The notes under the pieces are model-generated. The model searched no databases. It saw only the letters and a list, made by a program, of their open reading frames with translations, and was not told the origin of the DNA. DNA of 64,000 nt. It comes from a virus. The stretch spans positions 1-64,000 of the IMG/VR virus record IMGVR_UViG_3300032523_001141, one strand, 5' to 3'. Position numbers and translations under genes: made by a program. Below, piece by piece: positions 19,089 through 49,783 of this stretch; the stretch's first letter is position 1; each line of letters opens with the position of its first letter.

Positions 19089-19161
19089 AGCCGGCGGTCG
19101 GACTCGAACCGACGACCTGCTGATTACAAATCAGCAACTCTACCAACTGAGCTACACCGGC
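19089..19161 (-). tRNA. trnT: tRNA-Thr(TGT), CCA not encoded
   Basis: GCCGGTGTAGCTCAGTTGGTAGAG-TTGCTGA-TTTGTAA-TCAGCAG-GTCGTCGGTTCGAGTCCGAC-CGCCGGCT; full cloverleaf with anticodon TGT. Confidence 0.96.
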
Positions 19162-26515: not shown

Positions 26516-27058
26516 TCACAAGCTTGAACCGCTGGATGAGCTGCTCGTGTTAGGCTCGCCCCCAAGCCAGATTTCTCCGGCGGGTTCAATACGATCCATC
26601 AATTCGAGTGTTTCTCGTAAGCTGTAAACATCAGCAGCAACATCGCGCACAAAAGCGTAAACTTCTGTCCGAGACCGCACTACGACGTCTACATAGTTTA
26701 ATCGAAACCACTCTGGCCGGTCGCCCGGAATTGGCTCGTCTTCTGGAAACTCTTCTAGGTCGGCGGGCGAGCACACATGATCGAAAGAGCCGACGCGCTC
26801 ATTCTCGCCCGGCTTTAGCGGTAACATAAGATAGGCGAATACTTTGTCCGGCATAAGCGCGGCGTCGTCTGCCTCTATGCGCACCCGGATTCCGTCAGTG
26901 CTGTGGTAGTTGTAACGGCTGACGTACCATGACAAATGTATACGCCGGCCTGACGCAGTGCTGTTTGCGACAGGCAGCTCCGGCTGCGCAAACTGCTGGC
27001 CTATAAAGCGGTCAAGCTCGACAAGATCAGCGTCTGTTAAAGGGTTGCATTGGCTCAT
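26516..27058 (-). CDS. putative virion/tail-associated protein with poly-Ser C-tail
   Basis: ATGA-like overlap with the upstream gene; ends TSSSSSGSSL. Confidence 0.7.
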   Translation of the reverse strand: MSQCNPLTDADLVELDRFIGQQFAQPELPVANSTASGRRIHLSWYVSRYNYHSTDGIRVRIEADDAALMPDKVFAYLMLPLKPGENERVGSFDHVCSPADLEEFPEDEPIPGDRPEWFRLNYVDVVVRSRTEVYAFVRDVAADVYSLRETLELMDRIEPAGEIWLGGEPNTSSSSSGSSL

Positions 27059-27552
27059 TTAGTTTCTTCTTTACTGGCTTCAACGGCTTGGGCGGCTTGA
27101 ACTCGTTTGGCCGCGGTAATAGCCCGCTGAATAAGGATTTTTGTAGGATACGCTAAGAACGGCAATTTACGTTTAGTTGCTTCTTCCTTCAACCAGCCCA
27201 CAATTTCGGTAATATTTTGTTCGCACCACTCTATGCCCATTTCGTCCATTTTCTTTGCGCGAGCGTTGCACGAGCAATTTGGCGTGGCTTTTATTCCAAC
27301 TTTAGATAGCAGCCTTTTTAATTGAGTACCGGGCCCAGCTAGATTTAACTGCGCAATAGGCGTTGGGGGCGGCACGACGGCGGTGGGCGTGGGCGCTGCT
27401 TTTTGGCCGCATTCTGGCATCTTTTCCGCAATAGCTTGAAACTGATCTTTTAAGACTTTTGGGATAGTTGTTTTTTTAGCGCAGTTCTTGCACTGAAAAC
27501 ACACAAATTTTTCAGGTACTTTTGCGGGTATCTCTACAAAGTCACAACGCAT
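27055..27552 (-). CDS. Cys-motif protein (CxxCxxC plus GPGT...CSC domain)
   Basis: GGAGG RBS; GPGTQLKRLLSKVGIKATPNCSCNARAKKMD...WLKEEA, a pattern recalled from freshwater Planctomycete-type phages. Confidence 0.75.
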   Translation of the reverse strand: MRCDFVEIPAKVPEKFVCFQCKNCAKKTTIPKVLKDQFQAIAEKMPECGQKAAPTPTAVVPPPTPIAQLNLAGPGTQLKRLLSKVGIKATPNCSCNARAKKMDEMGIEWCEQNITEIVGWLKEEATKRKLPFLAYPTKILIQRAITAAKRVQAAQAVEASKEETK

Positions 27553-27582
27553 CGCGTCCTCCTGCGGTTAAACAGCTTTCAA

Positions 27583-27610
27583 AGCATAATTTTAATTGGC
27601 AGTTTGTCAA
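27583..27610 (-). promoter_or_regulatory. sigma70-type promoter
   Basis: TTGACA-16 bp-TATGCT, 30 nt upstream of ATG 27552. Confidence 0.55.
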
Positions 27611-27633
27611 TCTAAAACGTCGCGGCTACGCTA

Positions 27634-29823
27634 CTAAGGGCAAACAATAGTCACTGGCGTATTATTGCACGGCCCGGCTACGGTGGGGTCGCAGGCGCCA
27701 GCTGTGTCGCATGTCACTGTGCCGTATATTGTGCCGCCTTGTCGTTTTGCTGCAATATTAAAGCTAGCGTTACAGCGTATAATTCCGCTAGCCAGCACGG
27801 CTGAATCGTTAAAGGAAGCGGCGCCATTAATTTCGCCGCTTTCATTAAATGAGTAGCCGTAAAAGCTCGCGGCACCATTTACAACGCCGTAATTGCCTGC
27901 AAAATTCGAAAAAATAGCGTTACCGTTTATCGTGCCTACGCGCGCCGGCGAAACAGTATTGTTTCTGTTTAATATCGCATTGCCGTTAAACCGAGCAGTG
28001 CCGAGCACGTTCACTGTAATTTCTAAAGCCAACACTGGGCCGGCTTCTTCGTGCCACAAATCTTTTACGCACGGCGTTGGGCCAGTGTTTTTGTCTATTT
28101 GATACAGCAGCTTAACGGTATCTACCGCTGTTGGTAGCGTTGTAGGCGTCGGGCCCGTCGGGGTCGATACGTGCCAGTTTGCTATTATGTTCCAGTCTGT
28201 GCTGTTGCTACCGCCGGCAGTTCCGGTGAAATACAGTGTGCGCGCTACGGGGGTGGGCGCGCCGCTGCTTTGGCTGAAGACACTACTGCTAGAACTACTA
28301 GAGCTACTTTGGCTAGAACTACTAGAGCTACTCTGGCTAGAGCTACTAGAGCTACTTTGGCTAGAGCTACTAGAGCTACTTTGGCTAGAACTACTAGAGC
28401 TACTTTGGCTAGAGCTACTAGAGCTACTTTGGCTAGAGCTACTAGAGCTACTTTGGCTAGAACTACTAGAGCTACTCTGGCTAGAACTACTAGAGCTACT
28501 CTGGTTAGCGCTAATAGAACTGCTAAAGCTATTGCTGCTAGAGCTGCTTGACCCCGTATTTTCGCCAATCGTTATCGTAACCGCACCGTTGCAGTTTGTG
28601 TCCGTTAATCCAGAGCAATTTATTGCTGTTGCGCACAGTGGAAATACGTATGTCCCGGGCGGCGCTGTTTCAAACGATATACCAAGCACAGCCAAAAATT
28701 GTTCAGCACTTACTGTAAAAGTTGCTGGATAATCGGCGGCAGTTATGACTCCAGAGTTTAACGTGTACTCTACGGGCGGGTCGAATTGCGTCGTAAAAAA
28801 TGTCCAAGAAGTTTGATTTGCTTCAGCTTCTGCGGCGTTGCTTACGATAATACTGACATTGATAAAGTCGCCGGGCCCAAAACTGTTCAGCGGCGTGCCA
28901 GTCCCGGTGCCGCCAGAAAAAGTAATCGGCGTGAACGTCGTTGTATTGCAACTGCTGCTAGAGCTCGACGAAACATCAGAGCTAGAGCTAGAGCTGGAGT
29001 TTGATGACGCGCACGGGCCGGGGCACGCCGGCGGAATAAATTCCGGAGGAAGCGGCGCCTGCTCAAAACCACAAGCTGTTTGATTAAATATGAAAAGTGC
29101 TTGTGCTTTTATTACAGGGCCGCCTGTACTGCAATCGCAGTCGTCGCACCATTCATACGTCATAAATGAGCCGGCGCAACCAACACCTGTAACGCGCATT
29201 GAATAAACTTGCTCACCACAAATTGTTTCTGTGGTATCGCTTAGCCCGTCGAATGCCGCGTCGCAGTCACAAGAAGAACTTGACGACCCCGAGGACGTTG
29301 TCCCGCCCGATGAGCTTGACCCGGGTCCGGGTCCGCCGCCACCGTCGTCGCACAATCTCCAAATTATCTCAATTGGAACGCAGTCGCAGCCTCCGGGATT
29401 AAAACCCGGCATGTACGTGATTAGGCCGTACTGCGTACCGTCAGGGCAGAATAACGGCTTGCCGGGCGGACAGGCTGGCACTGGAAAACATGGCGGCGGA
29501 GTACCGCCGCAGTTCATACCGCAATCCGCCCAATTTTGATAAGTTCCACCGTCCTCTACTGAAAAACAATTGCCAGTATTAGGATTACACGAATACCCAA
29601 TTGCTTTGCACACGCCGTTTTTTAAAGTTTTACCGACGGGGCATTTACAAATGCATTGGGGTTTTTTAATTGTTCCGCCGGTGCATTTTGTGTCTAAACA
29701 TTTACACTCGTCGCTATCTGGGTCAACGTCACTGCCCGGACAGCCGCACTGACACTTCTGCTCTGTGTCAAAGCAGGGGTAATCAGGATATTCGTCGCAA
29801 TTATCTACTTGTACGCAACCCAT
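27634..29823 (-). CDS. modular Cys-rich/poly-Ser protein (putative tail appendage or adhesin)
   Basis: Cys-rich EGF-like-looking N-terminus, several poly-Ser linkers, C-terminal DWNIIANW...LPTAVDTV with GNAxF beta-helix repeats. Confidence 0.8.
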   Translation of the reverse strand: MGCVQVDNCDEYPDYPCFDTEQKCQCGCPGSDVDPDSDECKCLDTKCTGGTIKKPQCICKCPVGKTLKNGVCKAIGYSCNPNTGNCFSVEDGGTYQNWADCGMNCGGTPPPCFPVPACPPGKPLFCPDGTQYGLITYMPGFNPGGCDCVPIEIIWRLCDDGGGGPGPGSSSSGGTTSSGSSSSSCDCDAAFDGLSDTTETICGEQVYSMRVTGVGCAGSFMTYEWCDDCDCSTGGPVIKAQALFIFNQTACGFEQAPLPPEFIPPACPGPCASSNSSSSSSSDVSSSSSSSCNTTTFTPITFSGGTGTGTPLNSFGPGDFINVSIIVSNAAEAEANQTSWTFFTTQFDPPVEYTLNSGVITAADYPATFTVSAEQFLAVLGISFETAPPGTYVFPLCATAINCSGLTDTNCNGAVTITIGENTGSSSSSSNSFSSSISANQSSSSSSSQSSSSSSSQSSSSSSSQSSSSSSSQSSSSSSSQSSSSSSSQSSSSSSSQSSSSSSSQSSSSSSSSSVFSQSSGAPTPVARTLYFTGTAGGSNSTDWNIIANWHVSTPTGPTPTTLPTAVDTVKLLYQIDKNTGPTPCVKDLWHEEAGPVLALEITVNVLGTARFNGNAILNRNNTVSPARVGTINGNAIFSNFAGNYGVVNGAASFYGYSFNESGEINGAASFNDSAVLASGIIRCNASFNIAAKRQGGTIYGTVTCDTAGACDPTVAGPCNNTPVTIVCP
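28282..28503. repeat. 24-nt tandem repeat, about 9 copies, encoding (QSSSSSSS)n
   Basis: Unit CT(T/C)TGGCTAGA(A/G)CTACTAGAGCTA repeated. Confidence 0.9.
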
Positions 29824-29826
29824 AAT

Positions 29827-30101
29827 TTAATTATCGCAAATATAGGGTAAACTATAAAAAGTATTTACCGGCATTAATTTTAACATTTCAGCGGCCGAAG
29901 TTGACGACATAAAATAGTTATTTCTTGAATGTGTCGGCGCTATGCGCATAGCTTGCGCTGGGCGTGCATGGGGGTATGCTGCGTGCGTCTCGTCAACGGT
30001 GATAGAGTCGCCATCCTCGCTGACGACGCACGGCCGCACCTCGTCGAGCGTGTAGCCACGTTCTTTGCAGCGAGCCAACAAGTGGTCTAGGCGGCACACA
30101 A

Positions 30102-30105
<4 letters not shown>
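29827..30105 (-). CDS. hypothetical protein, possibly truncated or chimeric
   Basis: ATGA coupling; N-half CRLDHLLARCKERGYTLDEVRPCVV..DGD.ITVDETHAAYP is GC-rich, C-half is AT-rich and poorly protein-like. Confidence 0.6.
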
Positions 30106-31226
<1,121 letters not shown>

Positions 31227-31275
31227 AACAACATATACGCTAGTTTAAAATTTAAATTTTACGGCGCCGTCAAAA

Positions 31276-33054
31276 TTAAATTGGTATTGGATTGCAATAC
31301 GTTCCAGGCGGGCAGCCCGGCGGGCATGGGTCCGCGCCGCAGTTTGCCGGAGGATCCGGATCGCTACTGGAGGACCCACCACCACCGCCGCCGCCTGTAG
31401 AGCACGCTGACGTGTTGAGCGTGATCGTAGCCGATAGTTGCGGCGAGCACGGGTCATCGTTATTAACGATAATGTGACCAGACCCGAAACTTCCCAGACT
31501 AATCGCGCCGCCGGCAACACGCGGATTTGTGGGCCAAATAATTTCTGCGTGTATTTCTTGATTTCCGTCGACGTCTTTGTCTGACACGATAAGTGTACAC
31601 TCCGGGTCGGCATCGCAAACAGTTCTTGTAATTGTGGTTTTGCCCGCAATTAATTTGCCGCCGGGCGGGGGCACTGTTACAAACAAGTAAATTTCAAATT
31701 CGCACGGGTTACGCCCGTTCGGCACAGCCGACACTGGCAATATTCGAATATCGTTTATCGCAAAATTGTTACCGACAGAGTAGACCGTGTTAGCGTATCT
31801 AAATATGGGGCACGGTATTTTTGGAATCGGTATAACTAAATCGAGTTTAATATCAAATTGGCACGTGTCAGGTGTGTCGAAATCGCCTGGCGTAATAACC
31901 GGCGTTGTGTACAGTCGTGATTGATACGGACGTGGCTCGTCTTCGTATACAACGGCTACGCTAACTGGTTGCTCTGGGAATGTCGGGCATACTGGCCGCG
32001 GTATAGGTAGATTTAGGTCTAACGTAAAATCAAACTGGCACGTGTCCGGCGTATTGCATCCATTGCCCGGAATTTCTGTCGTAGTTACGGTTAGTTTGTT
32101 TTGCCCAGTAATGAAATTTGCGTAACCAATGTTTACATTTACCGGTTGTTGATAATTAATCACCGGGCAACGAGGCGCCGGAATTGGGATGTTTAAATCA
32201 AGGTCAAAATCAAACTGGCATGTGTCAGGCGTATTGCATCCGTCGCCCGGCACGTCTGTCGTAGTTACGGTTAGTTTATTTTGGCCAGTAACGCAATTTG
32301 CATAACCAGTTTTTACAGTTACGGTTTGCTCTGTGTTGATCACCGGGCAACGAGGCGCTGGAATCGGGATGTTTAAATCGAGGTCAAAATCAAACTGGCA
32401 CGTGTCCGGCGTATTGCACCCATCGCCCAGGACTTCTACTGTAGTTACAGTCAACTTGTTTTGACCGGTAACGCAATTTGCATAACCAGTTTTTACAGTT
32501 ACGGTTTGCTCGTTGTTAATTATTGGGCAACGAGGCGCCGGAATTGGGATGTTTAAATCAAGGTCTATGTCAAAAGAACACGTGTCGTCATTTTCGCAAT
32601 CGCCCGCGGTTGCCGTGACCTCAAGTTTGTTTTTAGTAGTAAAGCAGCTTGATTTGTTGAATGCTGTCGTTACTGTTACTTTTGCCGGGTTGAACACAGG
32701 GCATGGTGGCGCTGGAATAGGAATATCCAGATCAAGCCCAATTAAAAATTCGCACCCAATTGTTTGCGTAACAACAATTCCTCCGCGAGCGCTTTCAGAG
32801 CTATTGCTACTGTCGCACCGCGTTTGTTGGCGCACAGAAACAGTTACGTTGCCGGGACTAATGTCTGGGCAAAACTCATCCGCCGGCGGTACAAATGGCG
32901 GGCAGGTTGGGAGGTCGCAGTCGTAGATCGGCGGGGGAGGCGGTGGGATCGTGCAGTCTGCAATAAATGTAAAATCAACTTTGCACGGAGAATTGATAAT
33001 GCAGCTATTATCAAACAGCGCGACCGGGCACGACGATGATGAGGAGCTGGGCAT
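31276..33054 (-). CDS. Cys/Pro-rich repeat protein (putative fibre shaft)
   Basis: Begins MPSSSSSSC; six C-x-F-x3-LDL-x-(I/L)PIP-x3-CP repeats. Confidence 0.8.
   Translation of the reverse strand: MPSSSSSSCPVALFDNSCIINSPCKVDFTFIADCTIPPPPPPIYDCDLPTCPPFVPPADEFCPDISPGNVTVSVRQQTRCDSSNSSESARGGIVVTQTIGCEFLIGLDLDIPIPAPPCPVFNPAKVTVTTAFNKSSCFTTKNKLEVTATAGDCENDDTCSFDIDLDLNIPIPAPRCPIINNEQTVTVKTGYANCVTGQNKLTVTTVEVLGDGCNTPDTCQFDFDLDLNIPIPAPRCPVINTEQTVTVKTGYANCVTGQNKLTVTTTDVPGDGCNTPDTCQFDFDLDLNIPIPAPRCPVINYQQPVNVNIGYANFITGQNKLTVTTTEIPGNGCNTPDTCQFDFTLDLNLPIPRPVCPTFPEQPVSVAVVYEDEPRPYQSRLYTTPVITPGDFDTPDTCQFDIKLDLVIPIPKIPCPIFRYANTVYSVGNNFAINDIRILPVSAVPNGRNPCEFEIYLFVTVPPPGGKLIAGKTTITRTVCDADPECTLIVSDKDVDGNQEIHAEIIWPTNPRVAGGAISLGSFGSGHIIVNNDDPCSPQLSATITLNTSACSTGGGGGGGSSSSDPDPPANCGADPCPPGCPPGTYCNPIPI
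32001..32580. repeat. 180-nt tandem repeat, about 3 near-identical copies (60-aa unit)
   Basis: Lines at 32041, 32221 and 32401 align at a 180-nt period. Confidence 0.9.
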
Positions 33055-33059
33055 GACGA

Positions 33060-34001
33060 TTAGCAATTCTTCGAAATGACATTGTCTGATACGGTTATGT
33101 TTAGTGTGCTTAGTTCAGGGTCTGTCACTATTTGAATACCAGTACCGGGGATCAGGTTTACGTTAGGCCCCGGTAGCCCGTTAATCGATGTAATAACCTC
33201 ATTGCAGGCCGGGCCGCCGCTTAAAAACTGACTGCGCGGGTCGCCGTTGTCGTCAACAGGCGGCAGCTCGTCGGCAAAAAATTTAAGCTCGCCATTATTT
33301 GCGCATAACTCGGCGGCGGCAGTGCCTGTCGTGTCAGCTCCAAGTAGCGGCGCTATTGTAATTGTGCGCAAATTGTCGTTTTGCATAATCTCACAGTTAA
33401 GTCCGGGAATAAATTTTATGTTGTCTTTTAGGCATTCTTGGTAACTAATGACTTCGCGGGGAGTAGAAGAAGAGCTGGAACTAGTCGCGCACGGCGGTAT
33501 TACCTCGCGCGCGTAATTACCAATATTTATTGACCGTAAATATCCGTTAACCAACGACTGCACTCGGCGCGGTTCGACAACGCGCTCTGTATTGAATACA
33601 AGTGTAGTTCCGTTAATTATTTCAGCGTTGCGAATGTCGCCTGAAACTACGAAACCCTCCCACGCTGGTTCCGTAGCGCAGAACGTGGTGTCGAGTACCG
33701 GGTCGCTATCTACGTGCTCTGTTGTCCACTCTTCTGCGGTATTTGCGCGTGTGAACGTAAGCGGCTTGTCGGAGGCGCCGGGCGCGTTAGTCCGAAACTC
33801 AAATCGATAAACGTCAGCTATTTTTGTAACGCTGTGCAGGTATACAAAGTGCAAAGCGGTGTCAAACCCGCTGTCTATGCCCATGATAAAACCACAGTCC
33901 ACGATAAGCCCTGTAGGCAATACCGCAGCGGCGTACGTCTTTTTATGGACGAACGGAAATTGGCGGTATTCGTTATCGTTATAGAATCCGTCGCGCGGCA
34001 T
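33060..34001 (-). CDS. tail-associated protein, paralogue 5 of the R-x-YPF / ING family
   Basis: FYNDNEYRQFPF ... ITSINGLPGPNVNL. Confidence 0.8.
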   Translation of the reverse strand: MPRDGFYNDNEYRQFPFVHKKTYAAAVLPTGLIVDCGFIMGIDSGFDTALHFVYLHSVTKIADVYRFEFRTNAPGASDKPLTFTRANTAEEWTTEHVDSDPVLDTTFCATEPAWEGFVVSGDIRNAEIINGTTLVFNTERVVEPRRVQSLVNGYLRSINIGNYAREVIPPCATSSSSSSTPREVISYQECLKDNIKFIPGLNCEIMQNDNLRTITIAPLLGADTTGTAAAELCANNGELKFFADELPPVDDNGDPRSQFLSGGPACNEVITSINGLPGPNVNLIPGTGIQIVTDPELSTLNITVSDNVISKNC

Positions 34002-34804
34002 TAAAACACCTTAGAGCCGACAGCAGCTATCTTTAACGTGTTATTTTCAGGATAAACTCTGAGTATAGCGGCTGTCTTAGCCGTACTTATGCCCGGAGCG
34101 TTAGTTGCAACAGTTATTGTAAAATTGCCATATTTATCAGGCTCGCAGCCGTTAATGGTCTTTAAAAAGGTTTTTGGCGTAAAGTCTCCGACGGGGTTTC
34201 CGGCGTCGTCTAGGCATTGAATTCGTTTAAAAAGCGGCTCGCCTACGATATCTACCCGAACCGTATTGTCGGCCTCTGCTCTTAAAACCACGCCCTTTTC
34301 ACCCACCAGCCACGCATCCCCCGTTAAAAGCTCGCCAGACGGCCCTAGAAGGCCGCGAACGCCCGGTTCTTGCGCGGGGATGACTGCGGACGCCACCAGC
34401 TCTGTGGCGGCCTGCGTGAAGGTGTGCACGCCTAGAGGCCACCCGCTCAGCAGGTTCAGGCCTTCCGTCAGGCCGATTATTACCCCGGCGGGCCGTCCGT
34501 ATTTGTCTATTAGCGGTAAGGTCGTGAAATCGCCGCTGGCGAGCTCTAGCGGGGCATACGTCGCCAAGCAGGTGTTTTGCCGGGCGCTGTCGGTGAACCT
34601 AATTGTCACTAAGTTATTATTCATCTCTATACTGGAGATAAATACACCGACCGCGCCGTTAATTGTGTACACACTGACGTCCACAAAACAGTCTTTTGGG
34701 ATATAAAAGCCATCTCGTGACTTTAACGTGGCGCTGTCGTTAAACGGGTACCGCGAGTCGCTCTGCTCATTGCGAAACTCCGGGAATACAATTCTGGCGC
34801 TCAT
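34001..34804 (-). CDS. tail-associated protein, paralogue 4
   Basis: FRNEQSDSRYPFND ... LKTINGCEPDKYGNFTI. Confidence 0.8.
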   Translation of the reverse strand: MSARIVFPEFRNEQSDSRYPFNDSATLKSRDGFYIPKDCFVDVSVYTINGAVGVFISSIEMNNNLVTIRFTDSARQNTCLATYAPLELASGDFTTLPLIDKYGRPAGVIIGLTEGLNLLSGWPLGVHTFTQAATELVASAVIPAQEPGVRGLLGPSGELLTGDAWLVGEKGVVLRAEADNTVRVDIVGEPLFKRIQCLDDAGNPVGDFTPKTFLKTINGCEPDKYGNFTITVATNAPGISTAKTAAILRVYPENNTLKIAAVGSKVF

Positions 34805-35689
34805 TTAAGCCCCTGCACTTGAACTGGATGTTTCGCACTGATCCACGCCCTCCCGCGGCGTCTCGTACGGGCGTTTGCCGCAAATCTCAGGCAGGTCAAT
34901 ATCGAGATACAGGCCAAAACCGCCGCAGTCAGCAAACGGAACAACCGTTAAATCTGCGGTGCCCGACAGAATATTTATGTTACCGTCGCAATCTGGGGTT
35001 ATGCCGTTTATGGATTCAATAGGGGTCTGCGGGCAGGTGCCGCTTTCCGGGCGCTGTGAGCATGGCCCTAAAAAGAATTTAAGGGGGTTGTAACCTATAA
35101 GGCCGACAGTGGCGTCTAAACCAAAAACTAGCGCTTGTGTTGTTTTGCCGTTTACTTGAATTTCGCGCAATTCTGTTACGAGTGGGGCGGCAGTCACAAT
35201 GTTTACTAATCCGGCAAGACTAGTGCCTACCCCGTATTTTCCGATAGACGTTACAGGAAGCGCCGAATAAGCGCGGGCGTTATTTTCAAGCAATAATGTC
35301 TGACGCGGCGAAGAATAGCGCGCGGTAAAATTCTCACTCACTCCGTCTCCAAATACGCACCAACCAGCAACGCCCGGTACTAGTGCTTGTACAGCGTAAT
35401 TTTTATTAAGCTGCAACGGCTTGGGCGCGCTAATTGCGGCGATAGGTGTGCTCGTTGTTGCGTTTTCATCGTCAGCGGCGCCAATCACGACCGTGACGAT
35501 TCCAGCAGAGACCGTAACGGCCTGCACAAAAGCTACTGGTCCGTATGTTTTTGGATAACGAATGTTGCAATCAACAAGGATGCTGTCGCGTATGCTGTTT
35601 CCGGCGTCGTCAATGCCCGTACTTCGATCGTTAAGCGGATAGCGCCGCCCGGCCTGCAAGTCATACCAGTTTTGATTACGGACAGGCAT
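34805..35689 (-). CDS. tail-associated protein, paralogue 3
   Basis: WYDLQAGRRYPLND ... IESINGITPDCDGNINI; poly-Ser tail. Confidence 0.8.
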   Translation of the reverse strand: MPVRNQNWYDLQAGRRYPLNDRSTGIDDAGNSIRDSILVDCNIRYPKTYGPVAFVQAVTVSAGIVTVVIGAADDENATTSTPIAAISAPKPLQLNKNYAVQALVPGVAGWCVFGDGVSENFTARYSSPRQTLLLENNARAYSALPVTSIGKYGVGTSLAGLVNIVTAAPLVTELREIQVNGKTTQALVFGLDATVGLIGYNPLKFFLGPCSQRPESGTCPQTPIESINGITPDCDGNINILSGTADLTVVPFADCGGFGLYLDIDLPEICGKRPYETPREGVDQCETSSSSAGA

Positions 35690-37318: not shown

Positions 37319-37321
37319 TTT

Positions 37322-38284
37322 TTACCCCGCGGGATCGGGGCATGTTTCGCAACCGGCGTCGCCCAACCGACTGCCAATCACTACCAAGCTCATTTGCGTA
37401 ACTTCAGAACTGAGCTTGGTTACAAAATTCTCGAGCGTGGCTACGCCGTCACTAAAGCGATCTATTTGCGTTTTTAGCGCGTCCAACTCTGCGCATCCAC
37501 AGCATGGCGATGCGCACGTGTCTATTAAGTTAATACCGTTATCACTTGCGTTAACAGAAATACAATCTGAACCAGCAATATTAAAATTGCCGTCATCTGA
37601 GCAAACACCATTAATGCAGCGGATGCATTCGCCGGTATTGTTTACTGAGCATTCGCACTCTGTGTTTAAATTTTCGCCAGAGATAGCGTTGAAAACTATT
37701 TTGGCTGTTGTGGTGCTTGTAGCCGGCTTGACTATGATCTGCATATTTGTGCCGGCAACAAACTCGACGTCCCCGTACAGCGTGGGGCTAATTTCATTAA
37801 GGCTCACGACACGAATACCGGACACGCCGCGAATCATTGGGCGTATAACGTCTGTCTCGAGCTCTCCGTCCGCGATTGCAAACTCGTACAAGCCCTGCGG
37901 CAATGCGGTTACGTCGTCAAGGCGCCCGATAACGACATGCCCGATAGAGTCAGCAAAATCAGCTATCCCGCCAACAGCGTACGTTGTATTTGGCGTATGC
38001 GTAACAATCGGTATATTAGCGCTTCCAGCTAAAACAGCCGTGCCGTTGTCGTTGTATGCAATGCTGATCGTGTACCCGACCGGCGACAGTAGAATGTTTT
38101 TGATGTAAAACTGATCTACTTGAACAGCTAACCCGGCGTGCACAGGAAAATACAGCGCTAAAATAAAGCCGTCCGGTACCCGAATTGTTCCGGTGACGTC
38201 CGTCTTAGTGGCGCGCTCTGTGAACGGGTACGAGCGCTGCGAGTTGTGGTTAAGCCACTGTAAATTCCAATTTCCGATAGGCAT
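37322..38284 (-). CDS. tail-associated protein, paralogue 1
   Basis: WLNHNSQRSYPF ... IRCINGVCSDDGNFNI ... CASPCCGC, then coiled coil. Confidence 0.8.
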   Translation of the reverse strand: MPIGNWNLQWLNHNSQRSYPFTERATKTDVTGTIRVPDGFILALYFPVHAGLAVQVDQFYIKNILLSPVGYTISIAYNDNGTAVLAGSANIPIVTHTPNTTYAVGGIADFADSIGHVVIGRLDDVTALPQGLYEFAIADGELETDVIRPMIRGVSGIRVVSLNEISPTLYGDVEFVAGTNMQIIVKPATSTTTAKIVFNAISGENLNTECECSVNNTGECIRCINGVCSDDGNFNIAGSDCISVNASDNGINLIDTCASPCCGCAELDALKTQIDRFSDGVATLENFVTKLSSEVTQMSLVVIGSRLGDAGCETCPDPAG

Positions 38285-38299
38285 AGCAATTCACCATTT

Positions 38300-40159: not shown

Positions 40160-40184
40160 CCTTGTCCTCCGGGGCGCTTAAAAG

Positions 40185-40811
40185 TTATTCAAAAGAGATG
40201 TCCCAAGTAATGCCGATCTGCGAAGAGGCTTCTTTGCTTGTCTGATCGCCGATATCAAAGTTTGTACGCGCAAAAATAACGTCGTGTGCTTTATCGTCAA
40301 AGCGCGGCATAGCCACTAGCGCGGCCGAGTAAACCTTGCTATTGGTTGTGTGGCTAAATGGGCACTCCTCGCCGTTGTTAACGCCAACTGCGCCGGATGT
40401 TTGCGCAAAAAACGTTAACTGATTTCCCTGCAGTGCGGACGTAAGTGCCGACGCTCCCTCGCTTCCAGCGGCGACACCAAGGGCCGGCTCTAGGCGCAGC
40501 GGGACGCGTAGGTAGTCTTTTGGCGCCGTTAGCTCTGAGTAGTAGTCAATGCCGAGTACGCGGCTAAAAGACGGGACGGCGATCGGGGCAGCTGGGTTTT
40601 CAAGGTTCTCATACTCGAAGTACATGCCCGATATGAAGTACTGATCTCGATCGGGCTGGTAACGATACCCCAGCTGTTTTGCGGCAATGTAACCCCAGCT
40701 AACTTGAATTTGATTAGGCTTAGAGATAATTGGCGTCCGGATGCCGGTTTTTTCGTCAATCCGCCAAAGCGTGACTTTACCGCGAACGTTAAATACGGAT
40801 TCTGCTGGCAT
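40185..40811 (-). CDS. putative baseplate/tail-collar protein
   Basis: C-terminal IFARTNF...K...ITWDISF pattern; GAGG RBS. Confidence 0.6.
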   Translation of the reverse strand: MPAESVFNVRGKVTLWRIDEKTGIRTPIISKPNQIQVSWGYIAAKQLGYRYQPDRDQYFISGMYFEYENLENPAAPIAVPSFSRVLGIDYYSELTAPKDYLRVPLRLEPALGVAAGSEGASALTSALQGNQLTFFAQTSGAVGVNNGEECPFSHTTNSKVYSAALVAMPRFDDKAHDVIFARTNFDIGDQTSKEASSQIGITWDISFE

Positions 40812-40956
40812 GTTTTTACCTCTCTGCCGCTTATTATACGCAATTTGGCCCGCCTGCCCGAATTTCTGAAGCTGTTTTATGCGGGCGCGTGACTAGGCCG
40901 CTAATAGCTTATCAAAGCGGTGTTTTAACGGGTAGTGCTGCAATGGCGGTTGTTTT

Positions 40957-43900
40957 TCATGCGCTGCTACTGCTACTGCCGAATCCTGGCAGGGTAATAA
41001 TATTTGGCGTATGCACGGTATGTCCGCAAAATCCGGGAGAGTCGCCGGCAGCCATAAACTGCGCACCAGTAACGGGCGCAGGATCTGCCTCTGGTGTGCC
41101 GATTAACTCAAAGCCGATATCTACCAACGCTTGAAGTGTTAAACGCGATAAAACCATGCTTCCCGGGTTCTGCAGAATGGCGCCGACCATGAGCTCGTTT
41201 TGTACGCCATAAAAACTTACAGCTAAGTTCGGATCTGTTTCACCCGGAGCGGCCGGCCGGTAACTATTTTCCCAGTGGCCGGAGGCTGTGCCGCTACCGC
41301 CGGTGTTCTCGAGCGGTGTGTAATATCGCGTAAGCGTTGTGATGCCGTTGTACGCTGTTTGTGTGTTTGTGTAGACGCTGCCGTTTAACGCAAAATTTGC
41401 TGCAGACCACAGGGAGCCAATACCCAGCGCGTGGCCGAGCTCGTGTGCAATCACTGTTTGCCAGAATGTTGCGGACTCAACAAATGCTTCGTTAATCGTC
41501 AGGTCAAAATATGTCGGAACGTATGTGTCTGGCCCGCCGGTTGAAAAATCAAGCACATCAGTAAGCGAGCACGACGCAATTGTGTCACTTGCCGGGTTGT
41601 TAAAGTATGTAATGCTATTTAACGCAATGCCAGCCCATACGGTATTTGCTGAATAGTAGTTTACGATAGTCGCGTATTTTTGAGCGTTTATCTGCAGCTT
41701 ACTGGACCAACGCGCGTTCGCAACGTTTAAATACGCCTTATACGGCTCCGCGACCGCGGCCCACGAGGTAGCATCAAATAGATTTTGCGCGGTTTGGCTG
41801 CTGTTTAACGAGCTTGACGATATACCGCTACTACTAGAGCTGCTGCTACTAATACTGCTGCTACTAGAAATGCAATCTGGATAAAAGTAAAAATCGATAA
41901 CTGTGTTGTTGTTACCGGTATCTGAGTAAATAATTGTTGAATTATCGGGCGCAAGTAACGTTACCGTTATAACAATATTATCGCAATTTAATGACTCAGG
42001 CCCTTCGCTGCTAATTCCAAATACGTACGCCACACTCGGCGGCCGCGTGCCGGGGGCGGAGAAAGGCGATAATCCTGCCGGTAATACAATATTTGCGCTG
42101 CCCGTTAATTTTGGATTAGACGGCGTGCTGTCGCTTGCCTCGCTCAGTGTCATCGTTCCGACAAGCGTGTCTTGCGCAGATATCGTAATTGGCCATGTTG
42201 AATTTGTACATGTGCCCTCCGTATTTACACTTACATTAAGCACATACGACTCCAGATCCGCTAATACCGCGCAACTGCTGGAGCTGCTGGAGCTGCTAGA
42301 GCTAGAGCTTGAGCTGTCGCTGCTGCTACTGCTGGAGCATATTTGCGCCGCGATAACTTGGTCGTTTGGTACGCATGTGTCAATGATTGGCGTGCCGCCG
42401 CGGCCAAGCGGGTCGCTGGCGCTCCAAACACGTAGCCACGCAATACCGACGTGGCAGCGATAGTTGCCTTCGGCGTCTTGCGACGCGCACCGAAGTTCTA
42501 AATCGTATTCGTTGTTGGCGTTTGGAGGAATGGTAGTCAAATTTAAGGCCATGTCAGCCGAGCGATCGCCGCCGCCGTGCTGGCCGCCGTTGTTTAAATC
42601 AGCAGTTCCAATAAATACGTTATTTACGTAAAAATCGAAAATAGCGGCGTTGCAGGAGTGGTTGCCGGGGCATGGACCTTCTGTGCCGCTGTACTTGATC
42701 GTGACTAGGTAATCCTCGTTTACTACACACGGCAACACCGGCAGGTCGATCGTGGGACAGGTAATCGGCACGCAGACTGGATCAGACTCGCAATCTGTTG
42801 TTGCGAATGCTTTAAAACAAATGTCACTGCCGACACTTGTTGCAATAATATCAACAACTGCATTGCTGCAATCAACGCAATCGCAATTAAAACGAAGCGG
42901 GTTAAACGTGTTATTATCCATGCAGCGTATTACGCTTATTTGATCGTCGGCCGTTAAAGAGCAGGCGTCAACTATAAGTTTATTTTGTAGTTGATCTGCC
43001 GCGGTAGGCCCGTCAGCGCTGTAAGCGTAATCCCAGTAACCCGCGTTTGTGTTCCCGCCTTTGTAAAAAGCTGCTTTAAACCATTCGTCGGCATTTGGAA
43101 TAAAGTAATGCGCGCCAGCCTTACGAGTAATTAACGGAATGCGATCGCCGTCGCCGTTTAATACAAAACCATTTTTAGGTTCGCCCGGCGCGTATACGGG
43201 CAATAGCGTCAGGTCGTATGCGCCGTCATCTGTATATGTGCTGTTTAGATTTGTTACGCGATTGTGTAGCCAGTTGCAAAATCGTAGCGACATTTCTAAA
43301 GACATTATGGCGGGTAGTTCTTCGTAATCGGCCGAATTACCGCTTTGGCCGCCGCCCTGATGGCCAACCGCCGCTAGCGTATACGTGTAATTTCCGTTTA
43401 CACCATTGCGCAGGATACCGGCGCATGCCCACGGATCTACACTATTCGGACACGACGCCGTGTACGCTAAATTATTCGCATCAGACGTAAAACATGTGTT
43501 TAAAAACTCTACATACTGACGCCGGGTAAGTTCAAATTTGTGCAGCTTGTATGTGTAGTTTACTTGACCGATAGTTCTTCCGACTGCGTACGGATAGGTA
43601 CTACCCATTAAGTCCGTTGCGTCTCGCGTAGCTACCGTATGCGCTGAGTTTCCGCTATCCGCAACAGTCACGAAGCAGCCGTAAGCTAGCGGATCCGTTA
43701 TAGACGCTAATCTAATTCCGCCAAAAGGGCCGTCTAGCTTAATATTTGTATCTGTCGGCGTTAGCAGCTCTGTCGCCGTGGCGTCTTTAACTGGCGGGTA
43801 CGGCATAAATGTCGCCAGTGAGCCAAAACCTTGTCGCCCCTCAGACGGGTTTAGCGACAAAGCCGGCCCGTGTCCTAGTATGCAACTTTCTGTTAATTCT

Positions 43901-46332
43901 CTAGCATTATCTGCCATGTTGTAACAGCCGTAATATGTTTTAATGCCGGTTAATCCGACATTTGTATAGCCGGCATACGAGTAACTCCAATTGCCGTCTG
44001 CCGTCAACCAGTCGTACCGGTCTGATAGCGTTATATTTTTTGAGTACGTTCGGGTCATCACGGCGTTGAACCACGTGCCGCCGTCCACGCTATAGCGAAT
44101 ATTTTCATAGCAATTTTTATTTGCGCCAAACGTCACGCGGTAACTTGCGGTATTGTTGGTGTAGCACTCTAAAAGCGCCACAGACGCAATAACAGCTCTG
44201 GGCTCGCATTCATCAACAACGCATGATAAAGCTGGTAAGCCAGACGTGTTAGATACGCTTGACGCGCTACTTAATGAGCTAGAGCTGTTTACTGCGCTAG
44301 CGCTAGAGCTTGATACAAGGCTAGAGCTAGAGCTTGATACATCGCTGGAGCTTGATACAAGGCTAGAGCTAGAGCTTGATACGTCGCTGGAGCTTGATAC
44401 AAGGCTAGAGCTAGAGCTTGATACGTCGCTGGAGCTTGATACAAGGCTAGAGCTTGATACAAGGCTAGAGCTTGATACAAGGCTAGAGCTGGAGCTTGAT
44501 ACAAGGCTAGAGTTTGATACGTCGCTGGAGCTTGATACAAGGCTAGAGCTTGATACAAGGCTAGAGGTGGAGCTTGATACAAGGCTGGAGCTTGATACAA
44601 GGCTAGAGCTAGACACCAAGCTAGAGCTGGAGCTTGATACAAGGCTGGAGCTGGATACCAGACTAGAGCTTGAAACCAAGCTGGAGCTTGAGCTTGATAC
44701 AGCGCTGGAACCGCCGCTATGCCCAACGCATGTTTCATCGCCGTTGGGCGTCTGGCAAGTGCCGTTGATTACCCGAACGGTGACACCGCGGTCGTGCACC
44801 ATAGAAACCAAAATGCTGTCACTTAAAGGTTCAACAGCCTTAAATTTTGTGGGCCATTCTGTGATGCTGTCAGGGCCTGCGATTTTGTCGCCCCGTGCGT
44901 CAAGACTGTATATGAAAAACAGCGCTGAATACGGCGGTACAAGTTGCCGCAGGTGTCGAATGTTGTACAAGCCGAGATTATTTTCACCCAACTCGGATAC
45001 GCGAATAAGCACAATTGCAGCATTATTGCGTAACACATTTTCAACAAGGAACTGCAGCGGGTTGATAGTAGCTGGCAGGTTCGCTGCGGCGGGCTCATCA
45101 GGCGCGTTTGGCCGCTTATCCAGCAAGTGCGCAAGCGTACCTTTGCGGATGTTTGTCGGGTCGCAGGGATTCGATACCGCGTCCAGCCGCGACTCAATCC
45201 CGCGGGCATGCATCTCGTCAAAGAAGCGTTTTAAATCATGCTGAAAACCGCCGAGCCTAAACGATACGTATGTGTAGCCGCTTTCGTGATTAGCGTCCAC
45301 AACCAGTGGCACGTCGATGTTTTCAAATATTAGGTCGCTGTAGTAGCAGTACGCAGTAAAACCGCGATCAAGCGCAAGCGCCTTAATCTCGTGCGGCACT
45401 TCAGCGCGATTTAACTCTACAAAACTAAAAGCGTTTGTTAAGCGGGCGCCGGCATGTACTGTGTCGCCAACGGAGACTATTGGCGTTGCGTCTGTCGCAA
45501 AACGATAAGCGTTTTTATCGGTAACAATGAGCAGGCCGCGGTTATCGCGCGTTATTAGCTCAACCACCTCAGTCGTTACCGCGAGCGGCACGTCAAGGAT
45601 CGCGGATAGCGCGTCTTCTATAACCGCCGCAGTTGCACCGCCGCCGATGAGGCCGTTTGTTATAGCGTTAACTAATTTTTTAGCGTTTTCTGAACTTGGA
45701 AGGTTAATGTTTACCGCGTACGCAAATTGATTGAACAAATATTTGTAGTCGAACTTTGCTTTGAACACCCACAGCGTAATTTCTTCGTCTACAAGCGTGT
45801 CGCCGTCGTATATGGGTTTGCGCAGTACGGTTTCAATCTCAAACGGATTTACGTTGAAAAGTATTACCGCTTTAATGCCGTCAACAATAAAATCCATGCC
45901 GGCTGTCAGCGCTACACTAGGGAACAGTAACCGGTCGTAGATCTGTCCGCCCGTCACAAGTTCGCTATTTATTGAAAACGCAAAGAAATCGCGACTGGCG
46001 GCGCTGTTAAAGTTTATAGGTACTCCCGCGCCGTAATAAATTTCTGGCTCGTCGAACGTGTAGTAGTTTGCCGCGGCTGCGTTCATTTGGCTTTTACGCA
46101 AAATGAGCGGGTACCAGTTTTCTGTGTGAAACAGCGGCATGCTGTAACGGCTAAGCGCGGCCACAGTCTCGAGTAGATTTAACTGAGTCTGGGCAACAGT
46201 GCGCGCTACTGCTTGTCCGTATGACTTTAACTGGTCTTTAGCTTCGTACGTGCGCGACCAGAAACTGCCCAAAGAGCTGAGTAGTTTGTCTGTATCGTCT
46301 AAGTCAGATGTTGGATATTTAAAATTTTGCAT
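40957..46332 (-). CDS. giant baseplate-associated multidomain protein (wedge-like N-terminus, Ser linkers, FGE/SUMF1-like domain, zinc metalloprotease)
   Basis: Directly after baseplate J; RFCNWLHN and EWFKAAFYKG...GYWDYA; HELGHALGIG plus PLENTGGSGTASGHWE and NELM. Confidence 0.8.
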   Translation of the reverse strand: MQNFKYPTSDLDDTDKLLSSLGSFWSRTYEAKDQLKSYGQAVARTVAQTQLNLLETVAALSRYSMPLFHTENWYPLILRKSQMNAAAANYYTFDEPEIYYGAGVPINFNSAASRDFFAFSINSELVTGGQIYDRLLFPSVALTAGMDFIVDGIKAVILFNVNPFEIETVLRKPIYDGDTLVDEEITLWVFKAKFDYKYLFNQFAYAVNINLPSSENAKKLVNAITNGLIGGGATAAVIEDALSAILDVPLAVTTEVVELITRDNRGLLIVTDKNAYRFATDATPIVSVGDTVHAGARLTNAFSFVELNRAEVPHEIKALALDRGFTAYCYYSDLIFENIDVPLVVDANHESGYTYVSFRLGGFQHDLKRFFDEMHARGIESRLDAVSNPCDPTNIRKGTLAHLLDKRPNAPDEPAAANLPATINPLQFLVENVLRNNAAIVLIRVSELGENNLGLYNIRHLRQLVPPYSALFFIYSLDARGDKIAGPDSITEWPTKFKAVEPLSDSILVSMVHDRGVTVRVINGTCQTPNGDETCVGHSGGSSAVSSSSSSLVSSSSLVSSSSLVSSSSSSLVSSSSLVSSSSLVSSSTSSLVSSSSLVSSSSDVSNSSLVSSSSSSLVSSSSLVSSSSLVSSSSDVSSSSSSLVSSSSDVSSSSSSLVSSSSDVSSSSSSLVSSSSASAVNSSSSLSSASSVSNTSGLPALSCVVDECEPRAVIASVALLECYTNNTASYRVTFGANKNCYENIRYSVDGGTWFNAVMTRTYSKNITLSDRYDWLTADGNWSYSYAGYTNVGLTGIKTYYGCYNMADNARELTESCILGHGPALSLNPSEGRQGFGSLATFMPYPPVKDATATELLTPTDTNIKLDGPFGGIRLASITDPLAYGCFVTVADSGNSAHTVATRDATDLMGSTYPYAVGRTIGQVNYTYKLHKFELTRRQYVEFLNTCFTSDANNLAYTASCPNSVDPWACAGILRNGVNGNYTYTLAAVGHQGGGQSGNSADYEELPAIMSLEMSLRFCNWLHNRVTNLNSTYTDDGAYDLTLLPVYAPGEPKNGFVLNGDGDRIPLITRKAGAHYFIPNADEWFKAAFYKGGNTNAGYWDYAYSADGPTAADQLQNKLIVDACSLTADDQISVIRCMDNNTFNPLRFNCDCVDCSNAVVDIIATSVGSDICFKAFATTDCESDPVCVPITCPTIDLPVLPCVVNEDYLVTIKYSGTEGPCPGNHSCNAAIFDFYVNNVFIGTADLNNGGQHGGGDRSADMALNLTTIPPNANNEYDLELRCASQDAEGNYRCHVGIAWLRVWSASDPLGRGGTPIIDTCVPNDQVIAAQICSSSSSSDSSSSSSSSSSSSSSCAVLADLESYVLNVSVNTEGTCTNSTWPITISAQDTLVGTMTLSEASDSTPSNPKLTGSANIVLPAGLSPFSAPGTRPPSVAYVFGISSEGPESLNCDNIVITVTLLAPDNSTIIYSDTGNNNTVIDFYFYPDCISSSSSISSSSSSSSGISSSSLNSSQTAQNLFDATSWAAVAEPYKAYLNVANARWSSKLQINAQKYATIVNYYSANTVWAGIALNSITYFNNPASDTIASCSLTDVLDFSTGGPDTYVPTYFDLTINEAFVESATFWQTVIAHELGHALGIGSLWSAANFALNGSVYTNTQTAYNGITTLTRYYTPLENTGGSGTASGHWENSYRPAAPGETDPNLAVSFYGVQNELMVGAILQNPGSMVLSRLTLQALVDIGFELIGTPEADPAPVTGAQFMAAGDSPGFCGHTVHTPNIITLPGFGSSSSSA
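44270..44705. repeat. 18/27-nt degenerate tandem repeats encoding (LVSSSS[SS])n and (DVSSSS)n
   Basis: GAGCTTGATACAAGGCTA units repeated many times. Confidence 0.9.
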
Positions 46333-49778: not shown

Positions 49779-49783
49779 TGTTG

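Follow-up and report, generated by a model that had tools for sequence, protein, structure and literature searches.

Poly-serine tracts as likely tethers and recombination seams in the predicted distal baseplate and fibre module of an uncultured contractile-tail phage

Positions 26516-46332 of the window, by which we mean the whole 64,000-nucleotide stretch analysed here, hold a module of 14 consecutive genes in which runs of serine (Ser) recur and cysteine (Cys) is abundant. The window forms the first 64 kb of the 119,990-bp IMG/VR record IMGVR_UViG_3300032523_001141 (guanine plus cytosine ~51%), a contig on which the minus strand carries nearly all genes and on which the tail type is contractile, with a sheath (PHROG 2839/279) and a baseplate J protein (PF04865). 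The region is best explained as a module for the distal baseplate and the fibres of this uncultured, contractile-tailed phage. Genes were called over the whole contig by a greedy longest-open reading frame (ORF) rule, without a gene finder, and all sequences compared are metagenome assemblies. The relatives are seven IMG/VR loci (L001-L007) that encode the 619-amino acid (aa) protein of the module at 55-96% identity and keep its gene order; the closest relative was extended with further loci, and two overlapping loci were merged for blastn. CheckV puts the completeness of three related records at 49% for 100 kb, 39% for 80 kb and 52% for 107 kb, which leads to a genome estimate of ~205 kb, so that the contig represents roughly 60% of the genome. 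With a fetched G001 region, of which ~52 kb lies left of the window, ~172 kb of the estimated ~205 kb was examined; negative results for gene families refer to 189 proteins, of which 123 come from the contig and 66 from the G001 region, where 72 ORFs were called. The sequence is found at 99% or more in public runs of one study, which are freshwater metagenomes, and sediment and runoff runs with a small share have no bearing on habitat.

At the upstream edge and in the centre of the module lie the following genes:
46338..48008 (-), 556-aa wedge protein resembling baseplate J, without Ser runs, 0.4% Cys; upstream edge of the module
40185..40811 (-), 208-aa protein, no Ser run; 56-98% identity in L001, L002 and L004-L007
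38300..40159 (-), 619-aa protein in which residues 316-320 form a Ser loop that varies between lineages; conserved in relatives
37322..38284 (-), 320-aa putative anchor-family paralogue that has clustered Cys and lacks Ser runs; hhalign 92% to the 294-aa and 267-aa families
35690..37318 (-), 542-aa protein ending in the putative stub ASSSSSI; shares the central part of the anchor family
34805..35689 (-), 294-aa anchor-only form with the putative stub TSSSSAGA at its end; from homologue alignments
34001..34804 (-), 267-aa putative anchor-family paralogue, no Ser run; hhalign to the 294-aa family 94%, E 1.3e-7
33060..34001 (-), 313-aa protein with an SSSSSS loop at residues 174-179; hhalign to the 320-aa family 38%

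The J-like protein scores 25.7 bits against PF04865 (cutoff 21.1) and matches PHROG 6, 'baseplate wedge subunit', at 2e-10; a tblastn search with it against 50,697 phage records gave no match. The 208-aa protein has no Pfam or PHROG family match.

Runs of at least four Ser occur in nine of the 14 module genes (52 runs) and in three of the 108 other ORFs of the contig (four runs), a difference that is highly significant (Fisher p=3.2e-8). The original prediction, made from the letters of the window, had placed poly-Ser in at least nine of ~14 consecutive genes, and both this count and the protein lengths and tags that it quoted (for the proteins of 180, 294, 542, 1791, 596, 313, 619, 729 and 374 aa) are reproduced by translation. 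When residues were shuffled within each protein, a run was found in a mean of 1.38 module genes and a maximum of four (300 shuffles), and for the six proteins that have short runs only, 0.06 are expected by shuffling and six observed. Cys content is 3.4% in the module and 1.2% elsewhere on the contig. A Cys lies no more than eight residues from 18 of the 38 tract boundaries, against 24.9% for random 8-residue windows of the same proteins (binomial p=0.002); the claim that tracts usually abut a Cys-rich module is thus true in part. Similarly, the core tail genes had been said to have no Ser runs, and from sheath to J within the window there are none, but a gene just past the sheath does have a tract. 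This gene, at 65489-66724 of the contig (L009:4489-5724) beside the sheath gene, encodes a 411-aa protein in which the tract is followed by 13 C-terminal residues ending KRKVNNFWEI. It is the sole clear Ser tract outside the module and means that the feature is not strictly confined to it. Pfam and PHROG searches with the whole module proteins gave nothing for 13 of the 14, for which PDB sequences yielded no match either, and sub-threshold matches only for the 596-aa protein, so the module is, as predicted, undescribed at the level of families.

The largest product of the module, of 1791 aa, can be divided by its Ser tracts as follows:
44698..46332 (-), residues 1-545, conserved anchor; a stand-alone protein of ~527-530 aa in most relatives
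44275..44697 (-), linker 1, residues 546-686, LVSSSS/DVSSSSSS units; DNA repeated in tandem at 44301-44709 with periods of 18, 42 and 60 bp
42337..44274 (-), residues 687-1332, Cys-rich cassette with a divergent FGE-sulfatase/C-type-lectin-like domain, by homology
42274..42336 (-), linker 2, residues 1333-1353; breakpoint, high-scoring segment pair ends at 42313 and 42334
41869..42273 (-), small cassette, residues 1354-1488, 4 Cys; no Pfam match at E<=1
41809..41868 (-), linker 3, residues 1489-1508; breakpoint, high-scoring segment pair ends at 41860 and 41861
40957..41808 (-), metzincin-like domain with HELGH, residues 1509-1791, and the putative stub GSSSSSA at the end; by motif and weak matches

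Linker 1 sets in where the stand-alone orthologues end, these being 527-538 aa long in five loci (L002, L004-L007) while the Ser array of the window starts at residue 546. Homologues of the anchor form 411 clusters; among the 120 listed, a Ser run is missing from 117, lengths are mostly 525-549 aa, and the three that are extended are also the closest (61-62% identity) and have a Ser array directly after the core in each case. Behind the arrays of these three proteins (P0253-P0255) stand three short Cys motifs resembling YACV(V/I)PKFK, not large cassettes. Residues 1-545 are probably a wedge subunit like gp7, TssG and the gpI of P2. The gene lies directly downstream of the J-like gene (46332 vs 46338) in an order common to all relatives. 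The AF2 model of the anchor has a predicted local distance difference test score (pLDDT) of 81, with residues 515-545, just before linker 1, below 50. VIA-align matched this model to diffocin (8v3w_N, Z 6.5, 136 residues aligned, root-mean-square deviation 12.3), a weak match below the noise guide of Z 8, and yet more weakly to phiCD508 and PhiTE (Z 5.7-5.9), TssG (6n38_G, 5.3) and Mu (4.8); Foldseek found nothing in the PDB at E<=0.001.

The large cassette behind linker 1 is a putative receptor-binding head. It has 102 matches, nearly all annotated PF03781 (best bacterial E 9e-38), and residues ~790-1110 of the 1791-aa protein align by BLASTP onto repeated PF03781 units of P0003; residues 690-1332 scanned alone give no match to the PF03781 Pfam model at E<=1. 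The same cassette is carried by the ~530-aa anchor in the window and by a 294-family anchor in L005, and its best homologue, P0001, is a free 525-aa protein that ends ...SGSSSSSSSSSN at the position of linker 2 in the window. The small cassette that follows is conserved in the close relative, again between two Ser tracts. The metzincin-like domain proper takes up residues 1509-1785. Among 24 aligned members of the metzincin-like family, H121, E122 and H125 are invariant and H177 and M206 are present in at least 90%; 15 of the 24 have a weak Peptidase_M8 match, all below cutoff (best member E 8e-4), and the domain of the window itself scores 14.7 bits against a cutoff of 21. Profile matches in the PDB were matrilysin and leishmanolysin at E 0.03-0.3, and a large database holds 25 relatives of the domain (lengths of 155-494 aa searched), most of them without a Pfam family. 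PDB sequence searches with three large parts of the 1791-aa protein gave no match, and Pfam searches at E<=1 with 12 linker-free domain pieces of the module gave weak zincin matches and nothing else.

FGE-sulfatase/C-type-lectin-fold domains occur in the targets of diversity-generating retroelements. No reverse transcriptase family was found among the 189 proteins scanned, and a second copy of the DNA of the FGE-like domain is missing from both G000 and the 52 kb that G001 adds to it (~172 kb of ~205 kb). A retroelement directed at the lectin-fold domain was rejected on the grounds that neither a reverse transcriptase nor a template repeat is present in the ~172 kb examined.

Breakpoints were mapped by blastn of window positions 17001-48100 against the merged relative (~92% identical). 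The two sequences are colinear save for three events, with junctions at 42313-42334, 41860-41861, 30588 and 29962:
42313-42334, 540-bp insertion in the relative, within the tract for residues 1333-1353 (linker 2)
41860-41861, 2.84-kb insertion in the relative, within the tract for residues 1489-1508 (linker 3)
30588 to 29962, non-homologous replacement, 626 vs 594 bp; 30588 lies in the tract at residues 210-216 of the 374-aa protein, 29962 outside tracts

Breakpoints coincide with Ser tracts: three of the four junctions fall within them, when tract DNA makes up 1122 bp of the ~31,100 bp compared (3.6%; binomial P ~2e-4), and all four ends of the relative's two insertions are likewise within Ser tracts. 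Further cassettes rich in Cys are present in the 2.84-kb insertion, together with a stop codon that follows ...SNSSSSSSSSNSAASS and the start of a new gene, the 825-aa product of which carries the metzincin-like domain, separate from the anchor protein, behind a Ser linker of its own. Since tracts flank the relative's insertion, the arrangement of the window would follow from an ancestor resembling the relative by loss of the DNA between two of its Ser tracts, if the event ran in that direction.

The long tracts are tandem repeats at the DNA level, comprising a 24-bp unit repeated 9.2 times at 95% identity (28288-28508), (GCT)n and the 18/42/60-bp array. AGY codons account for 198 of the 328 Ser codons within runs and 979 of the 2387 outside. 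The contig has tRNA genes for Thr(UGU) (window 19089-19161), Asn(GUU) and Ser(UGA) (contig ~99732-99804 and ~105944-106031), and the last of these was considered as a supplier for the tracts and rejected because the runs use mainly AGY codons. The four public runs compared are all contigs, and depth and holes are therefore meaningless in them. A contig from run X2 omits 144 bp, exactly six 24-bp units of the tract of the 729-aa protein, and may be a collapsed assembly. Loose ends lie at 42295 and 42322 in X2, at 30596 in X4 and at 29972 in both; four of the 15 listed are in Ser tracts, at a kind of site where low-complexity repeats alone give such ends. Short-read contigs break at every long Ser array, which makes the number of repeat copies in the long tracts uncertain.

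Comparison across the relatives bears on the short runs in particular. At its end the 294-aa protein has CETSSSSAGA*, which corresponds in the alignment to the beginning of Ser linkers in two longer orthologues, those of L003 (907 aa) and L005 (1228 aa), where extra domains lie beyond. The 294-aa family comprises 807 clusters (HMMER, 1.84 billion representatives); the best 150 of these have a median length of 540 aa. A Ser run lies at the junction of anchor and extension (residues 260-330) in 33 of the 150, and 17 are short forms, five of which end in a Ser stub. The run of the 619-aa protein is of five Ser in the window and L001, seven or eight in L002, 15 in L003 and 14 in L005, and L004 and L006/L007 have an unrelated hydrophilic non-Ser loop instead. 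The run of the 313-aa protein is absent from all four distant lineages aligned (L003-L006), as are, at those positions, the terminal tags of the 542-aa and 596-aa proteins, although the L003 and L006 orthologues of the latter have Ser runs near their C-terminal ends. In the 542-aa protein it is the tail GPTTASSSSSI that is absent from L003-L006, whereas the Cys columns are conserved in all six orthologues. The short tags are present in an independent assembly with 93-98% protein identity.

Profile comparison supports homology of the 320-, 294- and 267-aa proteins; the 542-aa protein appears to share in it partly (hhalign against the 320-aa family, 92% probability over 107 columns) and the 313-aa protein marginally. 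In control comparisons the 619-aa and 208-aa families gave less than 1%. Direct BLAST and phmmer searches among the five putative paralogues reached a best E of 0.002, so it is the profiles that carry the paralogy, the 313-aa protein excepted. The AF2 model of the 294-aa protein is beta-rich with a pLDDT of 86.7. Fold searches with it gave a best E of 0.06 in the PDB (Foldseek), a best Z of 4.5 (VIA-align; a C2-like sandwich, residues 34-119) and a best E of 9e-3 in BFVD (an uncharacterised Pseudomonas phage protein), with no clear fold match in any library.

These findings make it likely that poly-Ser linkers tether accessory cassettes to conserved anchors and act as recombination seams, the terminal tags being stubs of such linkers. 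The conserved scaffold would consist of the J-like wedge, the ~530-aa protein, the 208-aa and 619-aa proteins and the beta-rich anchors of 320, 294 and 267 aa, and in this sub-lineage accessory cassettes would have been added to it via poly-Ser tracts: the FGE-sulfatase/C-type-lectin-like binding domain, the metzincin-like domain and many small Cys-rich domains. As protein, the tracts would be flexible, unstructured tethers between domains that fold separately; as DNA, they would be tandem repeats of Ser codons that change in length and at which cassettes may be inserted, deleted, fused or swapped. A short terminal tag would represent the remainder of a linker, or its first residues, in a protein that ends inside it, and the short internal runs may be lineage-specific surface loops. 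In agreement with this, the parts that flank linkers also occur separately, namely the ~530-aa anchor alone, the FGE-like cassette alone (P0001) and the zincin domain in its own gene in the relative. The pLDDT below 50 of residues 515-545 is the one indication of disorder, next to linker 1. The repeats may cause recombination or merely tolerate it.

Several points weigh against this interpretation. The breakpoints come from one close relative and three events, and breakpoints at low-complexity repeats are partly explicable by alignment ambiguity or assembly behaviour. Exact DNA identity between different tracts is short, 30 bp at most, so classical homologous recombination between tracts is conjectural. 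The relative with 93-98% identity retains the short stubs (4-6 Ser, mixed codons), which fits either a function or a recent origin, and the flexibility of the tracts is deduced from their composition. An ADP-heptose pathway and GT9-type transferases are encoded, and the tracts may be more than spacers. Finally, four of 19 domains have an odd number of Cys and a thiol oxidase was not found in the proteins scanned, which together make the disulfide part of the interpretation weak.

The original prediction also held that the appendages are disulfide- or metal-stabilised. The Cys of the scaffold paralogues are conserved in every relative aligned, which indicates that they are structural. Between the Ser tracts, 15 of 19 non-redundant domains have an even Cys count, and CxxC pairs and His are rare; as far as composition can tell, even counts mildly favour disulfide pairs over classical zinc sites. 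The Cys-rich cassettes would most likely be disulfide-stabilised domains of extracellular type that become oxidised after lysis. The even counts fit the disulfide part of the prediction. The thiol oxidases and Ser kinases that were looked for did not appear: the 189 proteins gave no match to Erv1/ALR, thioredoxin, DsbA or protein kinases at E<=1e-3. With no family matches, 3.4% Cys and even counts, the broader notion of an undescribed, Cys-stabilised appendage system is nevertheless supported.

The alternative that the Cys-rich cassettes are zinc or iron binding modules, able to fold in the reducing cytoplasm, seems to us possible if rather unlikely. It would account for the dense Cys-x-Cys of the N-terminal domain of the 729-aa protein (6 CxC), for the CPxCCxC and CxxC-type motifs of the 542-aa and 320-aa proteins, which are conserved in all aligned relatives, and for the failure to find a thiol oxidase among the 189 proteins. 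It is known that phage fibres and spikes can hold metal ions on their axes. Most domains, however, have none or one CxxC pair and His is scarce, the even Cys counts are as for paired disulfides, and no zinc-ribbon family reaches threshold in the Pfam search with domain pieces.

A search for glycosyltransferases, proposed along with the original prediction, was productive, yielding the following:
783..1742 (-), ADP-glyceromanno-heptose 6-epimerase (HldD); TIGR02197 287.6 bits vs 274.6 cutoff, Pfam Epimerase 1e-38
contig 104034-105545, GT9-methyltransferase fusion, 503 aa; PF01075 31.6 bits vs cutoff 22
G001:40783-42288 (close relative only), HldE-like bifunctional kinase/adenylyltransferase; E 3e-69, 233.9 bits, below the 521 cutoff

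GmhA and GmhB were not found in the contig or G001 proteins scanned. A variable glycosylation island lies near PhoH (contig 103049-105545; in G003, L020:8415-11503) and is made up of a conserved 327/335-aa protein with a weak GT9 match and a lineage-specific second transferase; in G003 a 694-aa Mannosyl_trans3 plus GT8-like protein stands in place of the GT9-methyltransferase. In the scan, relatives of the GT9-methyltransferase came from the close relative alone, and G001, G002 and G004 stop short of the locus.

These genes raise the question of whether the phage attaches heptose to Ser of the tracts and stubs (O-heptosylation), its GT9 protein acting in the cytoplasm on ADP-heptose made with phage HldE and HldD, so that the tethers would be stiff, protease-resistant glycan brushes. 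In the window HldD exceeds its NCBIfam equivalog cutoff, the GT9 domain of the contig is adjoined by the 327-aa protein with its weak GT9 match, and HldE is represented in the relative. It has been shown that TibC and AAH, which are GT9-like, use ADP-heptose to modify Ser, not Thr, of autotransporters (PMC4358343), and extensive glycosylation of mycobacteriophage virion proteins has been reported (PMC12582341). On the other hand, the transferases lie ~60 kb from the module and nothing links them to the fibre proteins. GT9 enzymes are mostly heptosyltransferases of the lipopolysaccharide core, for which host lipopolysaccharide would be an equally good acceptor, and neither GT9-like protein matches any PDB chain, TibC included, at E<=1. 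The Ser-poor G003 has other glycosyltransferases at the same locus, so possession of glycosyltransferases does not track the Ser tracts, and most orthologues are without tags. We therefore regard heptosylation as improbable. It can coexist with the linker role, and a combined form, in which tethers and stubs are O-heptosylated and possibly methylated, mucin-like brushes with disulfide-knotted heads while Ser-codon seams shuffle the heads between anchors, is to be judged improbable too.

That poly-Ser is a shared modification or assembly tag was the core of the original prediction, and it has not stood up: in orthologues of the 313-, 542-, 596- and 619-aa proteins the runs are lost or vary in length, and tracts sit at fusion points and breakpoints. 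In its assembly form, the run would be a recognition tag read by a chaperone or docking partner, which could explain why four proteins end in a short Ser run and one begins with one, why the tags are kept in the 93-98%-identical relative and why Ser stubs end five of the 17 short forms in the best 150 of the 807 clusters of the 294-aa family. The lineages that lack the tags (L003-L006), however, keep the gene order and presumably assemble the same scaffold. The tags vary in length and in the residues next to them, runs are missing from three conserved scaffold proteins (320, 267 and 208 aa), and the stub of the 294-aa protein is demonstrably the start of a linker in relatives. A shared tag is on these grounds very improbable. 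That the pattern is an artefact of chance, low-complexity mis-assembly or wrong ORF calls is scarcely credible: short-read contigs do break at long arrays and the ORFs do come from a simple longest-ORF rule, but the Ser-run enrichment (p=3e-8) and the excess of short-run proteins (0.06 expected vs six) speak against chance, the independent assembly of a second record carries the same genes and tags, and hundreds of database homologues have the same junction tracts.

The likely linker organisation extends to the downstream part of the module, which consists largely of accessory Cys-rich proteins:
31276..33066 (-), 596-aa Cys/Pro-rich protein with N-terminal MPSSSSSSC and a G7-S4 tract near the C-terminus; ~60-aa repeats
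30102..31226 (-), 374-aa accessory protein, four Cys-rich segments and three Ser linkers; (AGC)n at 30962-31042 and 30648-30695
29827..30126 (-), 99-aa ORF, similar over its final 44 residues (blastp 84%) to the C-terminal end of the 457-aa protein in the relative
27634..29823 (-), 729-aa accessory protein, four domains (23, 10, 4 and 6 Cys) and Ser linkers; nine SSSSSSSQ units
27055..27552 (-), 165-aa protein, 8 Cys, no Ser run; 93% in L013, 62% over 85 aa in L004
26516..27058 (-), 180-aa protein ending TSSSSSGSSL; last module gene, 98% identical in L013, tag included

In the 596-aa protein the MPSSSSSSC start lies after an upstream TTG, and 32 Cys are found between its two tracts. Its ~60-aa repeats have four Cys each and a NIPIPAPRCP motif, and correspond to a 180-bp tandem repeat present three times at 32026-32565, the copy number differing in the relative (662 aa). 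Weak matches were to PHROG 20787, 'virion structural protein' (9.9e-5), and, below threshold, to the baseplate attachment barrel domain of a lactococcal phage. The last cassette of the 374-aa protein is swapped relative to the close relative, homology to the latter's 457-aa protein ending at 30588, within the tract at 30579-30599; the 99-aa ORF is probably a remnant, to judge from its match to the end of that protein. ESM Atlas gave no usable feature match for the 374-aa protein, its own model having a pLDDT of 0.48 and the structure rows template modelling (TM) scores of 0.33 at most, and a 'Planctomycetota' label that recurs for this protein was set aside as non-evidence in view of the poor model and TM<=0.33. 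The 729-aa protein, which is 711 aa with other tract lengths in the relative, has no Pfam or PHROG family match; its domains, those of the 374-aa protein and the 4-Cys repeats of the 596-aa protein have no detectable Pfam relatives. The 165-aa protein, also with no Pfam family match, may be non-structural, and for the 180-aa protein no orthologue more distant than L013 was recovered among the relatives.

Elsewhere the contig encodes a gpA-type terminase, a sigma factor, PhoH, CsrA, a Volactin-family actin and the three tRNAs. The sigma-70-like gene (window 48972-49817 (-); Sigma70_r3, 2e-9) lies within the baseplate operon, two genes from J, and is retained in all relatives at 65-97% identity. 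A multisubunit RNA polymerase of cellular type is encoded at 82466-84346 and 85314-89762 of the contig (L010:3466-5346, 6314-10762); Rpb2 (9e-48) and Rpb1 domains occur together in a 1482-aa protein, a beta-beta' fusion, and Rpb1 domain 5 is found in a 626-aa protein. The actin homologue of the Volactin family (contig 100592-101596; L011:3592-4596; Pfam 4e-63) is 79% identical to the G003 version, and in the eight papers listed, of 17 that mention it, volactin was associated with haloarchaea or general cell mechanics and not with phages. The window further contains a CsrA homologue (23569-23790 (-), 7e-19) and, at 7139-12113 (-), a MoxR-type AAA ATPase (531 aa) beside a 1124-aa protein with a VWA/CobT-like domain. 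Two routes to a host were tried and given up. A profile search of genome contigs with the 619-aa family alignment gave one 6.7-kb 'MAG: bacterium' contig, which is no basis for a host, and matches to the FGE-like domain came from Chthoniobacterales, Verrucomicrobiota and Pirellulales but from Proteobacteria and Ignavibacteria too, and are a mere hint.

The tracts are best compared with the poly-serine linkers (PSLs) that lie between the modules of multi-domain carbohydrases secreted by Saccharophagus, Teredinibacter and Cellvibrio (PMC2386152, PMC2699552). In Saccharophagus degradans, Teredinibacter turnerae and Cellvibrio japonicus these are reported to average 39-44 residues with 80-83% Ser (PMC2699552, PMC2386152). 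Several phage tracts are of the same class, having tens of residues and ~80% or more Ser, for example residues 442-514 of the 729-aa protein (73 aa), residues 63-88 of the 374-aa protein and residues 1333-1353 and 1489-1508 of the 1791-aa protein; the array at 546-686 of the latter is Ser-rich with L/V/D spacers, and the short runs of 4-6 Ser fall short of this description. Like the PSLs of those accounts, the phage tracts (16-141 residues) separate distinct domains, here lectin-like, peptidase-like and small Cys-rich ones. They differ in being located in predicted virion proteins that are made in the cytoplasm and anchored to a baseplate, the PSLs described being those of secreted bacterial enzymes, and in that many are perfect or near-perfect tandem DNA repeats that coincide with breakpoints. 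No report of poly-serine linkers in phage fibres was found in the literature searched. The module would extend such linkers, known so far from secreted carbohydrases, to predicted virion proteins.

Collagen-like repeats act as recombination sites in phage antireceptors. In the antireceptor of a Streptococcus thermophilus phage, collagen-like repeats separate domains (PMC5601072, citing Duplessis and Moineau 2001). The module shares with such modular receptor-binding proteins a conserved N-terminal anchor, varying distal parts and low-complexity repeats between them, but differs from the S. thermophilus antireceptor, as there described, in having poly-Ser and not Gly-X-Y, several anchors per operon and the same cassette on different anchors. 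Among the cassettes, the FGE-like domain resembles the PF03781 domains found in surface proteins of Verrucomicrobiota and Planctomycetota; residues ~790-1110 of the 1791-aa protein can be aligned with PF03781 units of database proteins, but the domain itself gives no Pfam score at E<=1. The metzincin-like domain has HExxH, a third His ~52 residues on and a conserved Met in the same order as leishmanolysin (M8), but is below the Pfam cutoff and forms the terminal cassette of a predicted fibre protein. The GT9 domain and ADP-heptose genes recall the TibC/AAH heptosyltransferases, which modify a repetitive surface protein (PMC4358343); the phage GT9, unlike TibC, is fused to a methyltransferase, and a PDB search showed no detectable sequence similarity to TibC at E<=1. 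The phage ADP-heptose genes raise the question of their acceptor, and dozens of Cys-rich domains of extracellular type are made in the cytoplasm with no thiol oxidase among the proteins scanned.

Distal fibre domains set the host range of phages, and the attachment of domains to old anchors is usually inferred from mosaic sequence. In the module a Ser tether marks nearly every place at which a domain has been gained, lost or moved, and the pattern spans a large family, with over 400 clusters of the anchor and over 800 of the paralogue family. If the tracts promote shuffling, they would provide a cheap and general means of diversifying receptor binding without a dedicated enzyme, and also a practical rule for the cutting and pasting of domains in engineered fibres. 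With respect to the known systems, the novelty lies in poly-Ser itself, in how many anchors and cassettes one operon holds, and in the direct coincidence of breakpoints with the tracts.

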